Sequence record: NC_047830.1
Direction: 5' to 3' (one strand)
Origin: Escherichia phage ST32
DNA length: 53,092 nucleotides
Both the position numbers and the translations under genes were made by a program. Below, piece after piece: positions 6,121 through 37,287 of this stretch. The notes beneath the pieces are model-generated. The model saw nothing but the letters and a program-made list of their open reading frames with translations. It searched no databases and was not told the DNA's origin. Positions within the stretch are counted from its first letter, which is position 1. The number at the start of each line of letters is the position of its first letter.

Positions 6121-6348
6121 ATGAAATTTAAATGTGTTGCTTCAACCAAAGATTATGTTCCAGTTGGCTTCATCGTTGAAGGTGAAGCTATCTCACCTTT
6201 GGAATTTAAAGTGACTAAATCTGCTGAGAATGTTTCTCCAGCATTTCGTAAAGGTGCTGTAGTTCCTATGAATGGTGCATTCTGGACATGGCAGCGTGAC
6301 CATGAAGCAGAATTTGCAGATATTTGTGAACAAGGTTTATTGCAATGA
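6121..6348 (+). CDS. hypothetical protein, paralog of 6345-6575
   Basis: AAGGA RBS; N-terminus MKFKCVAST.. resembles the next gene's MTKFKCVKST.. Confidence 0.5.
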   Translation: MKFKCVASTKDYVPVGFIVEGEAISPLEFKVTKSAENVSPAFRKGAVVPMNGAFWTWQRDHEAEFADICEQGLLQ

Positions 6349-6575
6349 CAAAGTTTAAATGTGTGAAATCAACCTCCTCATCTGAACATACTCCGAAAGT
6401 TGGGGATGTGATTGAGGGAGAACTTATCCACATACAGAGAAGACACGGAACAGACACTCGAATAGTTATTTCGAATGTTGGAAACCGAATGGCTGCAAAC
6501 GGAAGGCCATATTGGAACATTGGTGAAAAGGTTCCGCTAAAAGGTAGTGTCTGGTCCTGGGAAGAAGTCAAATAA
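6345..6575 (+). CDS. hypothetical protein, paralog of 6121-6348
   Basis: ATGA overlap with upstream gene; shared KFKCV..ST..VG..EGE motif. Confidence 0.5.
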   Translation: MTKFKCVKSTSSSEHTPKVGDVIEGELIHIQRRHGTDTRIVISNVGNRMAANGRPYWNIGEKVPLKGSVWSWEEVK

Positions 6576-14594: not shown

Positions 14595-14669
14595 AGAGAA
14601 AGGCTCTTTAATTTTATCTAAGTCACGTCACCGTGGCGTGCAAAACTATTCAATATAAGGTATATACAA

Positions 14670-15008
14670 ATGGCTAAGATTGTAACCGTAACTCAGTACG
14701 AAGCTAACGATGGTTCCCTGTTCCTGACCGAAGCAGAGTGTAATGCACATGACTTCAAACTGGAAAACGGTGCTAAAATTGAGAAAGCTGCCGAAGCGTA
14801 CCTGAACACCGTTGGCGCTATCGACCGTTCTCGCTCCATGCAGAAGAACACCATCGAGCAGTTCCTGGCATTCTACCTGCCGTGGGTTGAAGCTGGTGAG
14901 CCGGAAGTTGAGCGTACTAAGTTCGATACCCCGAAAGAAGCTAAAGTTGCTGACGCAAGTGTTGCTGATGCAGCAGAAGCTGCTGTTGAAGAAGCTCCGG
15001 TATTCTAA
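14670..15008 (+). CDS. abundant acidic protein, function unknown
   Basis: strong AAGGT RBS; codons of the highly-expressed E. coli type (CTG, CCG, CGT, GAA), unlike neighbours; promoter motif upstream and hairpin downstream. Confidence 0.7.
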   Translation: MAKIVTVTQYEANDGSLFLTEAECNAHDFKLENGAKIEKAAEAYLNTVGAIDRSRSMQKNTIEQFLAFYLPWVEAGEPEVERTKFDTPKEAKVADASVADAAEAAVEEAPVF

Positions 15009-15084
15009 GTTGCCGATGGCAAACTTGAGAGACTAAGCTAAATCGATCTGGCGTGCACTGGAAGTTTTCCGGTGCTGCCTTGAA

Positions 15085-15107
15085 CCCACTCTGAAAGGAA
15101 GAGTGGG
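15085..15107 (+). terminator. perfect 8-bp hairpin CCCACTCT-GAAAGGA-AGAGTGGG after the abundant gene, no U-tract
   Basis: inverted repeat read from sequence; lacks the T-run of a canonical intrinsic terminator. Confidence 0.35.
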
Positions 15108-15908
15108 CTTCAATGAGCATTCTTGTGATTAGAGCTGGGAGGTAGGCCGATGCCCAAGCTCATGGCCCAGACGAGAGTGTTCATTGAAGTAGTTTTCTGA
15201 GTCTTACGACGGGCCTAAACTGCCTGGAGTTATTGCGACTGTTTTATTCATTTAAAATAAATGCAAATGATTCTGAAATGCGAGTTGCGGCTTAATTAAA
15301 TTTAAGTCCTCTCCGTGGTCTTCCAATCCCACGTAACCAAATTTGGCGCATTGTGGCTTCGAGATGTGATTAATAAATCGGAGCAATAATTAATTTGTAT
15401 TCTGCGATGCAATGCAGGCTTAAGTCCCTCAGTGCGCGTGGGGATGTGACAGAGTACAAACTTAATTATGCAGTTGGATATTTCCGGAGGACGGACGAGC
15501 ACACTGGAATGTCTTCAATTGGTTTAGTGTGAGAAGCTATGCCAATGTGAAACGTAACTCCTTGAGGAAGTGCTCCTCTGGATTTCCCTCCACACAGGAA
15601 TCTCAAGCCTGTGGCAGTGACTTCGAAGCTGCACTGCGTAACCTAATTCACCCTAAAGTGAGTTGCCCTGAGCATGGAAATAAACTGCTCATAACCGATG
15701 GTATCTACAAAGGTAGATTAAATCAGGTTGCCTGTTGGTACTTGGGTTCAACACCTGCTTGCACTCGCAAAGTAGTGCCTTGTACCTGAGATGAAGTGAG
15801 TCGGGACCATCAATCCCACGTTATGTCAAAACACAGTAGGCGACTCACGGATTCTACAAGCCTCGCAGTTCGGGAAAACCTGCGTTATCAAAACCCCCCC
15901 TATTCTTT

Positions 15909-16003
15909 GGACGAGTAGCTCAGAAGGTTTGCATTGTGCTCAGTCAGGTAGAGCAATCTGTTCGACAGATGTGTCGTTGGTTCGAATCCAACCTCGTCCG
16001 CCA
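15909..16003 (+). tRNA. tRNA-like gene, non-canonical (anticodon possibly UCG, Arg); may be a pseudo-tRNA
   Basis: 7-bp acceptor stem GGACGAG/CTCGTCC, T-arm GTTGG-TTCGAAT-CCAAC, encoded CCA; but a roughly 20-nt insertion (AGAAGGTTTGCATTGTGCTC) sits in the D-arm and the anticodon arm is ambiguous. Confidence 0.55.
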
Positions 16004-16028
16004 CTCTCAACAATAACATGGAGTCCTC

Positions 16029-16169
16029 ATGGACATTGATGCATTAGACAATTTGGACTTCGGTGCTGCCGAAGAAGCAATTGAAGAACTCAAGAAGAAG
16101 CAGGACGAAGAAGCAATCGTTCCTGGTGCTGGCGATAATGACTGCTCAAGCGGTGCGTGTGCCATCTAA
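16029..16169 (+). CDS. possible small acidic peptide (46 aa) ending in DCSSGACAI
   Basis: ORF below track cutoff, GGAG 7 nt upstream; starts 26 nt after the tRNA. Confidence 0.3.
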   Translation: MDIDALDNLDFGAAEEAIEELKKKQDEEAIVPGAGDNDCSSGACAI

Positions 16170-16177
16170 GGTGATTT

Positions 16178-16414
16178 ATGCAACAGCTTAAATCAATAGT
16201 TCTTGGCGTCCTGACTGCATTTGGTATTCTCATTGCAGTGTTCCTCAAAGGCAAAAGCTCAGGCAAAGCCGAGGGGCGTCAGGAAGCCACAGAGAAGCAA
16301 CTGGATTCATTAAAAGAATCTATCGAGATTAAATCGCATGTTCAGAAAGAAGTGTCTAGCAGTTCTGATAGCAATGTCGATAGTGAGTTGCTCTCAAAGT
16401 GGGTTCGTAAGTGA
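16178..16414 (+). CDS. i-spanin (Rz-like): N-terminal transmembrane segment plus charged periplasmic domain
   Basis: AAGGTGA RBS; hydrophobic IVLGVLTAFGILIAVFL then charged sequence; overlaps a lipoprotein ORF in another frame. Confidence 0.55.
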   Translation: MQQLKSIVLGVLTAFGILIAVFLKGKSSGKAEGRQEATEKQLDSLKESIEIKSHVQKEVSSSSDSNVDSELLSKWVRK

Positions 16415-35838: not shown

Positions 35839-37287
35839 ATGGCAATTCCAATTTCCGATATCATCCAGGTCAACATCGCGGTATCTCCGAATGCTGTTGC
35901 CGTGGAGGGTTTTGGTCCGCTCCTGTTCTTGAGCAAGCAGTTTGTTCCAGCGCCGGGCGAACGTGTTCCTGTGCGCCAGTATACCAGCATGGCTGCTGTA
36001 TCTGCTGATTTCCCATCCGGTGAAATTTACAATGCAGCTTTAGCGTGGTTTTCTCAGAAACCGACTCCGAAGTATTTCCTTGTGGGTGCTATCACTCATG
36101 AAGATGTTACTCCGGCAACTTCTGGGTCTGTCACGGCATCTGCTGCTGCAACTCTGGAAACTATCACTGCGTTAACCAATGGCGTGCTGTCCATTAACGT
36201 TGATGGCGTAGACCGTTCTACCGCTCCAATCAACTTCTCTTCTGCTCACGACTTTGATGCTGCTACCTCCATGGCAAACGCGGCACTGGTTGCTGCTGGT
36301 ATTCCAGTAACCATGTCTAACAGCGAAGGTACTTTCAAAATTGTTACCAAGTCTGTAGGTGCTAAATCCATTATTGGTGACGTATACGGCTCTGCTGCTC
36401 CAGCATTCAAACTGGATGCGGAATCAAGTCCGGTGTATGTGCATGGTACTGATGAAGTATCTGCAGGTTCCGACCTGAACGCAATCCTAAACTCAACGTT
36501 CGACTTCTTCTTCGTTGCAATCGACCGCAAATATCGTGGCAGTTCTTCTGGCAATGTTCAGATGACTGTTGCTAAGTGGGCAGAAGCAAACGAGAAAGTG
36601 TTTGGCTGGGCCGATAACGACCCACAGATTCTGGTTGTTGGTGCAGAATCTAGCTTCAAACGAGCTAAAGAACAGAACCTCCAGCGTACCCTGCTGGTAT
36701 ATGACGCCTCTGACAATGGTGACGAATATCCAGAGATTTCTATCCTGGGCCGTGCATCTACTGTCAACTTCAACGTTGCAAACTCTGCACTCGTTCTGGC
36801 ATTTAAACAAGGTCCGGCTATCAAGACTGCTGACCTGTCCCCGAACCAGCTCGCTGCACTTGAGCGTGTAAATGGTAACGCATTCATCAACGTTGGTGGG
36901 AACACTATGTTCTACAACGGCAAGATGGCTGACGGCACTTGGTTCGATACCGTTCAGGGTGTATCTTGGCTGACCTCTAAAGTTCGTGCCAACGTGTTCA
37001 ACCTGTTCTATACCTCTACGACCAAGATTCCTTGGACCGATACTGGTGTGGCTCTGGTGAACCAACAGGTTACTCTGGCTCTGGAACTGGCTGTGACTAA
37101 TGGTCTGATTGCTCCAGGTTACGACAACGAAGGCAACTTCTACCCAGATGGTTACAAAGTCTTGTCTACCGACTTGGCTCTGATGCAATCTCAGAAAGGT
37201 GCTCGTATCTGGGAAGGTACTTCCTTCATTGCGATTGGTTCTGGTGCACTGCAAGGTGCAGTTATCTCCGGCAACTTCGTTCAGTAA
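35839..37287 (+). CDS. tail sheath protein (putative)
   Basis: 482 aa, host-like codon usage, immediately upstream of tube-sized gene, chaperone pair and tape measure. Confidence 0.65.
   Translation: MAIPISDIIQVNIAVSPNAVAVEGFGPLLFLSKQFVPAPGERVPVRQYTSMAAVSADFPSGEIYNAALAWFSQKPTPKYFLVGAITHEDVTPATSGSVTASAAATLETITALTNGVLSINVDGVDRSTAPINFSSAHDFDAATSMANAALVAAGIPVTMSNSEGTFKIVTKSVGAKSIIGDVYGSAAPAFKLDAESSPVYVHGTDEVSAGSDLNAILNSTFDFFFVAIDRKYRGSSSGNVQMTVAKWAEANEKVFGWADNDPQILVVGAESSFKRAKEQNLQRTLLVYDASDNGDEYPEISILGRASTVNFNVANSALVLAFKQGPAIKTADLSPNQLAALERVNGNAFINVGGNTMFYNGKMADGTWFDTVQGVSWLTSKVRANVFNLFYTSTTKIPWTDTGVALVNQQVTLALELAVTNGLIAPGYDNEGNFYPDGYKVLSTDLALMQSQKGARIWEGTSFIAIGSGALQGAVISGNFVQ

Follow-up and report, generated by a model that had tools for sequence, protein, structure and literature searches.

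The genome of Escherichia phage ST32 (NC_047830.1; the window is this whole stretch of 53,092 nucleotides) contains a 900-bp segment, positions 15009-15908, that lies directly upstream of a transfer RNA (tRNA) gene, and which raises the question of what a phage keeps there. The original prediction called it a candidate structured non-coding RNA. Our analysis agrees with that description for the + strand upstream of the tRNA, but the prediction had missed which RNA it is. Judged from sequence comparison, the functional core of the segment is a module of about 200 nucleotides (nt) at 15189-15392 (+) that resembles the message part of transfer-messenger RNA (tmRNA, the product of ssrA) and carries an antisense arm against the tmRNA of the host. 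We propose, with a probability of about 0.5, that this module is a small RNA composed of an antisense half and a stand-in message half, which docks on host tmRNA and substitutes a phage tag.

The statement that the segment holds no convincing open reading frame (ORF) is correct for ordinary genes, the longest ORFs being 86 aa (GTG start) on the + strand and 66 aa on the - strand, with no match of any ORF to Pfam or PHROGs. It fails for a frame of ten codons that lacks a start and is nevertheless under clear coding constraint. The segment is also strongly folded: its + strand reaches -303.7 kcal/mol, compared with -258.7 ± 7.4 kcal/mol for dinucleotide shuffles (z -6.1), and the - strand gives a z of -3.3 against such shuffles.

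The ten-codon frame reads GCA AAU GAU UCU GAA AUG CGA GUU GCG GCU UAA (15263-15295, +), encoding ANDSEMRVAA followed by a stop, and has neither a start codon nor a Shine-Dalgarno sequence. It is preceded by an A/U-rich single-stranded linker (15246-15262, +) that ends in AUAAAU and places an A at position -4 (15259), matching A86 of the host; the -4 A and the -3 A are invariant in 82 modules. On E. coli tmRNA the choice of frame depends mainly on A86, and activity survives changes to the pseudoknots and to the tag sequence (PMC2481249). Across the family we found 37 distinct 33-nt frames that encode 23 peptides, every one with exactly 10 codons before the stop. Ala is invariant at codon 1 (GCA or GCU) and at codon 10 (GCC, GCU or GCG), and the stop codon alternates between UAA, UAG and UGA. 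The two alternative frames contain stops in 30-31 of the 37 sequences. The frame is free of gaps in 74 aligned sequences, and gaps begin directly 3' of the stop. A start codon is not conserved, since the AUG overlapping the resume site is missing in several members (AACUGCA, AAGUGCA, AAUCGCU). Tags of the family such as ANDDVVLMAA, ANEEMYLAVA, ANDEQFLAVA, ANDNTFLAVA, ANDNYALAAA and ANDSEMRVAA resemble the host tag ANDENYALAA. The closest to it, ANDNYALAAA, is carried by a Chaseviridae-like IMG/VR contig (L031, 53,104 bp; 6324-6505, -), a variant that stops at UGA and whose resume context, AACUGCA, lacks AUG.

An Rfam scan, one of the checks that the original prediction had suggested, returned only tRNA matches at curated thresholds; sub-threshold tmRNA-family matches appeared at the tag. 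In a permissive search, such matches lay exactly at the tag in every locus tested, with 20.5-27 bits against a threshold of 47; the window itself scored 20.5 bits with the permuted tmRNA model (threshold 47) and 14.6 bits with the alpha tmRNA model (threshold 50). The frame thus has what defines a tmRNA message, namely an Ala resume codon, a short hydrophobic tag ending in Ala and an in-frame stop, and the upstream determinant is present as an A86 equivalent at -4. The start codon, ribosome-binding site and kept frame that together define a small protein gene were not found.

The stop codon of the tag lies in a hairpin formed by GGCUUAA and UUAAGUCC (15289-15295 and 15302-15309, +), an analogue of tmRNA helix 5; other module types have equivalent stop hairpins of different sequence (for example UAGCC-UAAC-GGCUA). 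Two pseudoknots follow on the same strand. Pseudoknot A (15314-15346, +) is built from stem S1 (15314-15318/15329-15333, CGUGG/CCACG) and stem S2, in which the loop at 15323-15326 (CCAA) pairs with 15343-15346 (UUGG). Pseudoknot B (15347-15384, +) comprises S1 (15347-15351/15364-15368, CGCAU/AUGUG) and S2 (15356-15362/15378-15384, GCUUCGA/UCGGAGC), with the A-rich third loop AUUAAUAAA. We tested three of the four pseudoknot stems for covariation in 74 distinct sequences and found 99.8% of the cells paired, with double changes at 7 of 14 pairs, whereas controls in which the partner was slid by 1-3 columns showed 27-50% pairing. In pseudoknot A, double changes occurred at 3/5 pairs of S1 and 2/4 pairs of S2, both stems being 99.7% paired; S1 of pseudoknot B was 100% paired, with double changes at two of its five pairs. 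The invariant G-U pair in the latter stem identifies the + strand as the RNA strand. S2 of pseudoknot B differs in length between groups and always keeps its pairing (GCCC/GGGC, GCCCUGA/UCAGGGC, UCCCUGA/UCAGGGA, GGCGGGAG/CUCCCGCC, GCCCAC/GUGGGC). The conservation and covariation that the original prediction had named as a further check were therefore observed: the core module is conserved beyond close relatives, and its pseudoknot stems covary.

The 5' half of the module is complementary to host tmRNA. As target we used E. coli ssrA; the query is 100% identical to the annotated ssrA in 5,426 of 5,426 genomes, and the target is 99-100% identical in Klebsiella and Salmonella. Antisense arm 1, GUAGUUUUC (15189-15197, +), is the perfect complement of tmRNA nt 99-107 (GAAAACUAC, tag codons 4-6), and its nine-nucleotide core (A/G)GUUUUCGU pairs with host nt 97-105 in 52-58 of the 58 distinct leaders. 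Antisense arm 2, UUGCGACUGUUUU (15233-15245, +), complements tmRNA nt 81-93 through 12 Watson-Crick pairs and one G-U pair and spans the resume codon and the -1 triplet of the host together with U85 and A86. Runs of 7 nt or more between this arm and host nt 76-95 are present in 56/58 distinct leaders, as compared to about 10% of shuffles. The two arms are separated in the window by an insert of about 35 nt (15198-15232, +) that occurs in GJ1-like phages only and is absent from the Chaseviridae of Erwinia and Aeromonas and from all other groups; it is partly complementary to the host pseudoknot 1 region (ssrA nt 53-67), with a weak antisense alignment.

Leaders of the siphovirus, HK620 and Ackermannviridae types, taken as reverse complements, are collinear with ssrA nt 52-106, which runs from pseudoknot 1 over the upstream determinant and the resume codon to codon 6; those of Felix-O1-like phages and Chaseviridae span ssrA nt 78-108. 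Leader-ssrA alignments score 38-46, compared with 18-20 ± 3 in shuffles, and the sense orientation is at noise level. Duplex energies are as low as -49 to -54 kcal/mol, and in joint folds the arms pair with ssrA 81-107 in four groups, including that of the window, with a net gain of 4-17 kcal/mol. The longest complementary run of the arm is 9-13 nt against the host message and 5-8 nt against the phage's own message. Because the arm fits the host tag codons and stays fixed while the phage's own tag varies, it appears to be kept for a target in trans. The leaders thus show the conserved, extended complementarity to a defined target RNA that characterizes an antisense small RNA. Two further resemblances were set aside. 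A second AGUUUUC at 15061 lies within a local hairpin (15054-15074), and since its pairing with 15865-15879 extends over only 80% of 15 nt, we treated it as chance. Sense similarities to the pseudoknot and T-arm regions of tmRNA were not significant singly (E-values of 0.2-17), with comparable scores elsewhere in the window.

How widely is the module distributed? ST32 is a phiEcoM-GJ1-like coliphage of the Chaseviridae (closest match EcoM1, 97% identical; phiEcoM-GJ1, 95%). Close relatives keep the whole segment, though with many insertions, and beyond them conservation is limited to 15235-15385. This part recurs in the Chaseviridae of Erwinia, Pantoea and Aeromonas, in the unrelated Ackermannviridae PH4 and Magnus, and in the 48-kb Klebsiella siphovirus VLCpiS13b (S13b). 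Phage 4HA13 retains exactly 15108-15383, that is, a helix plus the module, and has lost most of the remaining region. A blastn search with the S13b copy found the module in 780 of 50,697 phage records, which belong to no fewer than 8 phage groups. In IMG/VR, a pattern scan gave at least 120 loci, about 100 of them true among the matches listed. Carriers belong to the Chaseviridae, Ackermannviridae, Drexlerviridae, Ounavirinae, Lederbergvirus, Nonanavirus, Schitoviridae, Grimontviridae and T5-like phages, and include HK620 (Lederbergvirus), Felix-O1-like phages, Pylas (Schitoviridae) and 7-11 (Grimontviridae). Their main hosts are Escherichia, Klebsiella and Salmonella. The HK620-type copy is present in prophages of 135/5,426 complete E. 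coli genomes, where the NCBI annotation is blank. A blastn search of the E. coli genomes with the 900-bp segment gave no match, and a pattern scan of genome contigs for prophage copies found only chance matches in coding DNA. A covariance model of the message-plus-pseudoknots part located a sole copy in the 53 kb, at 15249-15392 (+), with 105.9 bits (E 1.8e-17), a score to be read with the window sequence itself being part of the training alignment; the next best match had 11.4 bits.

Every module-adjacent tRNA gene found by ARAGORN shares the strand of the module, with annotated examples in HK620 and SUSP2. The HK620 copy sits in the pR'-to-tR' late leader (1733-2440 of the locus), between the late promoter pR' with its qut site and the late terminator, and would join the short leader transcript that is made even without Q antitermination, hence possibly also in lysogens. 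In relatives of ST32 the region is an insertion hot spot: Mangalitsa, 4HA13, DE15 and flopper have there an HNH endonuclease, a gene for superinfection immunity or an additional 100-450 bp.

The 5' end of the RNA can be approached from its upstream contexts. In 18 of 82 distinct contexts, including those of S13b, PJ16, SUSP2 and Pistou, a promoter close to consensus (TTGACA-16/17-TAnnnT) ends 6-11 nt 5' of the conserved motif (A/G)GUUUUCG. These promoters end just before the arm, which implies that the RNA starts at the arm and leaves no room for a 5' acceptor strand. In the non-promoter contexts, the window included, a long helix ends at this same 5' point of the module. In the window it is formed by arms of 19 nt (15108-15126/15171-15189, +) that are 84% complementary, it is part of the minimum free energy fold, and it ends where the module begins. 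Equivalent helices, AGGUAAGAGCAUU...AGUGCUCUUUCC or AUCAAUGAGUACAC...GUGUACUCUUUGAU, precede the modules of other phages. We infer that the helix at 15108-15189 is a processing site that creates the 5' end of the module. A search of 14600-16200 for a sigma-70-type promoter or an intrinsic terminator found none. On the 3' side, a tRNA delimits the unit in several phages, beginning 16 nt past the module in locus L046 and about 60 nt past it in SUSP2, and the tRNA of ST32 at 15909-16003 is the likely 3' processing point of a precursor. Many loci have a helix of the AGGUAAGAGCAUU...AGUGCUCUUUCC type on one side of the module or on both (e.g. HK620 1931-2000 and 2153-2270). What it encloses is variable and can include a T arm or the motif CCCUUAUGGGGCUUGGCUUAAAUGCA; this recurrent helix may be a processing site or a separate RNA.

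A tmRNA also requires a tRNA-like domain, of which we found no trace in the module. Neither the window nor 5 related loci gave a tmRNA with ARAGORN, and the Rfam tmRNA matches cover only the tag-region model positions, never the tRNA-like parts. The module has no acceptor stem with discriminator base and CCA and no T arm with T loop. The sole T-arm-like stretch of the segment, 15735-15758, matches weakly in sense orientation (75% of 24 nt, E 0.22) and is missing in PM1 and phiA050. The G3-U70 alanine identity pair is absent, as the terminal helix of pseudoknot B starts with G-C, C-G, C-G and the neighbouring tRNA has A3-U70. Nor does the locus encode a two-piece tmRNA, given that the RNA begins at the antisense arm and the window contains no upstream T arm plus CCA. 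Three candidates were examined and rejected: a tRNA-like domain in cis, for which neither ARAGORN and Rfam nor T loops and CCA ends sought by hand gave anything belonging to the module; pseudoknot B and its tail as an acceptor mimic like those of plant viruses, rejected only as the main reading, where the CCA is not at a fixed distance and G3-U70 is lacking; and the odd neighbouring tRNA or UGUGGUG/CACCACA tRNA-like modules as partners in trans, which are missing from some contexts.

The observed anatomy, conservation, covariation, coding constraint and complementarity suggest a mechanism in which expression of the RNA, its annealing in vivo and resumption in trans are the steps that we infer. 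The 5' half would act as antisense, pairing with host tmRNA over U85/A86, the resume codon and the first six tag codons, to which relatives with a long arm would add pseudoknot 1. The 3' half would be a stand-in message that offers the A/U-rich linker, the -4 A, an Ala resume codon, the 10-codon tag, the stop in its hairpin and two pseudoknots. In ST32 the RNA would be excised from a longer precursor at the flanking helix and the downstream tRNA, and in other phages a sigma-70 promoter of its own would drive it; the remainder of the 900 bp would represent flanking structured or processing elements in a tRNA-type locus. The RNA would then anneal to host Ala-tmRNA/SmpB and form a two-piece hybrid tmRNA, in which the host A86, resume codon and first codons are masked and the phage linker and resume codon are presented beside the duplex. 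The host would provide the alanine-charged tRNA-like domain and SmpB. After transpeptidation, the ribosome would resume on the phage message and end at the phage stop, so that the phage tag replaces ANDENYALAA. In long-arm types, the linker from the end of the arm to the resume codon measures 12 nt, and the distance from pseudoknot 1 to the resume codon in E. coli is likewise 12 nt (PMC2481249). Covalent continuity should not be required in principle, because natural two-piece tmRNAs exist. In its broadest form, namely that a mobile phage RNA turns host tmRNA into a two-piece hybrid and every rescue in an infected or lysogenic cell writes a tag chosen by the phage, the proposal seems to us to have slightly less than an even chance of being right.

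Other explanations each leave one half of the module's anatomy unaccounted for. The module could be a pure antisense inhibitor, which blocks trans-translation by masking the resume region of tmRNA or by triggering cleavage of the duplex, the frame being inherited or a decoy and never translated. Such an inhibitor would not need resumption in trans, the antisense arms are the best-conserved part of the leader, and trans-translation can be inhibited in experimental systems by oligonucleotides antisense to the tmRNA message. What it leaves unexplained is the message half: the strict 10 codons, a stop that is kept while its identity changes, synonymous variation of the Ala codons, an invariant -4 A, and a frame without indels next to indels that start right after the stop. 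We therefore consider pure inhibition unlikely. The complementarity to host tmRNA is what remains unexplained if the module is instead an autonomous reduced tmRNA, charged via a cryptic tRNA mimic (pseudoknot B plus its A/C-rich tail) or through pairing to a tRNA-like piece of the phage. The stems of pseudoknot B do stack to 9-13 bp in all, with tails such as ACCCA, AACCA or ACACAAC behind them, and CCA-encoding tRNA-like modules lie nearby (UGUGGUG...CACCACA-N-CCA in HK620 and S13b, a mini tRNA in phiA050). However, the CCA is not at a fixed distance from the helix, the pairs G-C, C-G, C-G leave no room for G3-U70, and the tRNA-like modules are absent from Felix-O1-like units bounded by a promoter and the next tRNA, which makes autonomous charging improbable.

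It is more doubtful still that the segment is a mere spacer whose processing signals, promoters and terminators serve the tRNA and lysis genes, its likeness to tmRNA being a relic of recombination with ssrA. The flanking helices do resemble processing sites, and the locus does accumulate insertions in relatives (HNH endonuclease or immunity genes, variable length), but a relic would not persist with compensatory changes and coding constraint in at least 8 unrelated groups and 780 records, and 4HA13 retains precisely the helix and the module while the rest is lost. Least credible of all is a small protein gene, for which a 44-aa ORF on the - strand (15252-15386), a UUG-initiated 21-aa extension of the tag frame and the 86-aa ORF at 15529-15789 exist in the window. 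None of these matches any protein family. The - strand ORF is interrupted across the family by indels of 1, 4, 5 and 10-11 nt, and the invariant G-U pair of pseudoknot B would be C-A on that strand. As for the extension, the S13b-type leader has an in-frame UAG eight codons 5' of the resume codon with no AUG, GUG or UUG between them, and PM1 and phiA050 are without the middle of the 86-aa ORF, roughly 15698-15788.

Several observations weigh against our proposal that the module docks on host tmRNA and replaces its tag. The arm-ssrA duplex of the window (-25.4 kcal/mol) ranks only 3rd-5th among 5,302 windows of the genome, and the best one falls within a protein gene (482-aa ORF). By energy the arm of the window is thus unexceptional, and support for antisense pairing comes from the family rather than from this locus. 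The best duplex of the genome involves GCGUGGUUUUC at 36033-36053 (+) in the ORF 35839-37287 and complements ssrA nt 99-109; we took it as chance. The 35-nt insert separates the two arms in ST32, and the target sequence, common to all known hosts, offers no variation with which the arm could co-vary. The model gives the two downstream pseudoknots no role, and since the phage tags are still degradation-like (hydrophobic and ending in Ala), the gain from a tag swap is unclear. Finally, expression of the RNA, its ends and its interaction with tmRNA are predictions from sequence, and a ribosome resuming on a message merely base-paired to tmRNA is a step that the model has to presume.

Outside the module, the locus contains further elements. 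On the + strand, a conserved ORF of unknown function (phrog_17419, 14670-15008) lies immediately 5' of the segment at 15009-15908, followed by the tRNA gene (15909-16003) and then by the spanin genes of a lysis cassette. An upstream hairpin at 15080-15112 (+), UUGAA-CCCACUCU-loop-AGAGUGGG-C-UUCAA, is kept with two-sided changes in phiEcoM-GJ1 (UCCAUUC/GAGUGGG) and Aeromonas phage phiA050 (CCCAUUAC/GUAGUGGG). The stretch 15400-15500 (+) contains direct repeats of module sequence (GGCUUAAGUCC... and GCGUGGGGAUGUGA) without the tag frame; the family model gives no match there, and it is possibly a decayed partial repeat of the module. A second conserved unit, confined to Chaseviridae, occupies 15663-15894 (+) with hairpins at 15669-15674/15686-15691 (UGAGCA/UGCUCA), 15796-15848 and 15864-15884. 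Its blocks 15663-15734, 15802-15821 and 15835-15894 are kept in Pectobacterium phage PM1, Aeromonas phage phiA050 and contig L031; the compared 2.5-kb stretch of PM1 has no match to the tag module.

The repeats on which the original prediction had built its case belong mostly to these flanks. The inverted repeat CCCACTCT/AGAGTGGG was found where it had been placed (15085-15092/15100-15107), within the upstream hairpin. The repeat GTGAGTCG/CGACTCAC exists at 15796-15803/15841-15848, its first arm having been put too early, at about 15787, and CGCAG-N11-CTGCG lies at 15864-15868/15880-15884, about 9 nt below the positions originally given. All three are real and lie outside the module, in flanking elements kept only within Chaseviridae, and are peripheral. 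Of the direct repeats, CAATCCCACGT is present at 15324 and 15811, and TTAAGTCC at 15302 and 15420, the latter being 8 nt long instead of 9; their copies inside the module fall in pseudoknot A (15324) and form the 3' strand of the stop-codon hairpin (15302). Inverted repeats of 8 bp and direct repeats of 8-11 nt are each singly at chance level in 900 nt. The argument from a less AT-rich composition is weak as well, the GC content being 0.43-0.51 in the segment and 0.39-0.49 nearby.

The tRNA gene (15909-16003, +; 95 nt) is read as Leu-CAG by ARAGORN, whereas relatives annotate its equivalent as tRNA-Arg (UCG). It encodes CCA with a G discriminator, scores 43.8 bits in Rfam, above the threshold of 29, and has a 23-nt D-loop insertion that includes a duplicated GCUCAG and also occurs in phiEcoM-GJ1. 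A large tRNA-like module recurs downstream of the tag module (HK620 about 2268-2365, S13b about 1690-1815, several IMG/VR loci) and consists of a UGUGGUG/CACCACA acceptor stem, a T arm or substitute hairpin, and then A/G plus CCA; its U1-A72 and U3-A70 pairs mean that it is without alanine identity. CACAAC recurs as the 3' boundary of modules. In PH4, more than 2 kb around the module (about 850-2870) has no annotated genes and is full of tRNA-like fragments, among them T loops (for example GGUUCGACUCC) and, at 1055-1144, a tRNA below threshold; in the corresponding stretch of Klebsiella phage Magnus, only tiny ORFs are annotated. Mini or aberrant tRNA-like elements are found in phiA050 (2189-2236) and in an Erwinia phage (L001, 1759-1834 and about 1900-1990), one of which, GGCGGCU-hairpin-T arm-AGCCGCC-CCA, weakly matches the mascRNA model; they may serve as processing punctuation. 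The motif AAAUCGAUCU comes after the stop of the upstream ORF, immediately in the same Erwinia phage (about 1174-1184) and in Aeromonas phage phiA050 (about 1112-1122), and after about 33 nt in the window (15040-15050). AAAUCGAUGG is found in the Ackermannviridae locus (PH4, about 1299). The motif may be a phage promoter or processing signal.

How does the module relate to known systems? With one-piece tmRNA it shares the A/U-rich upstream stretch with a -4 A, the Ala resume codon, a 10-residue tag of the AND...AA type, the stop codon in a hairpin and H-type pseudoknots 3' of the message. It differs in lacking an acceptor stem, T arm and CCA, so that it is not chargeable as far as visible, in having host-tmRNA antisense in place of pseudoknot 1 and the 5' tRNA-like half, and in escaping detection, with 20.5 bits against the Rfam threshold of 47 and no ARAGORN call. 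In the two-piece tmRNAs of alpha-proteobacteria and cyanobacteria, a working tmRNA is built from two base-paired RNAs, and the permuted-tmRNA model of Rfam is the best, albeit sub-threshold, match to the module. There, however, both pieces stem from one gene, the coding piece bears the 5' acceptor strand and pairing occurs within the tRNA-like domain, whereas the partner of the module would be a complete host tmRNA, paired through its message. The ssrA genes of Bxz1-group mycobacteriophages and Bacillus phage G are likewise phage elements of trans-translation, those of the Bxz1 type being complete tmRNAs. A 2014 census of ssrA in RefSeq viruses listed tmRNA genes only in mycobacteriophages, plus a fragment in DS6A that consists of the tRNA-like domain only and was suggested to inhibit tmRNA, perhaps by titration of SmpB (PMC4131195). 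The module is the converse of DS6A, a message without the domain, with an antisense arm in addition. StxS, from the pR' leader of Stx phages (PMC7547250), is a short base-pairing phage transcript, and the HK620 module occupies the same pR'-to-tR' position; unlike RNAs of this type, the module targets a stable non-coding RNA of the translation apparatus rather than an mRNA or small RNA, and it also carries a translatable frame. GOLLD and ROOL are, like the segment, ORF-free, highly structured phage RNAs beside tRNA genes with a different architecture; neither they nor group I/II introns matched in Rfam, and E-values up to 10 gave nothing else relevant. Rfam 15 has no family for the module. Among open-access papers and bioRxiv preprints, we found nothing on the tag peptides or on antisense or tmRNA-like phage RNAs, and nothing relevant linking HK620, Felix O1 or Chaseviridae with tmRNA. 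A message-only relative of tmRNA with an antisense arm against host tmRNA thus appears to be undescribed.

The module is abundant yet almost never annotated, and current annotation pipelines systematically miss it. If our proposal is true, phages would add a third layer to the control of translation that they exert through tRNAs and ribosome modifiers, deciding how ribosomes are rescued and what becomes of the rescued proteins. They would take over translational quality control by replacing the template of tmRNA in trans, a mechanism without precedent. The module could serve as a compact, programmable tagger of rescued proteins. It also bears on an old puzzle, the importance of trans-translation for phage growth, as reflected in the tmRNA-dependent plaque assays with hybrid phages mentioned in PMC2481249.

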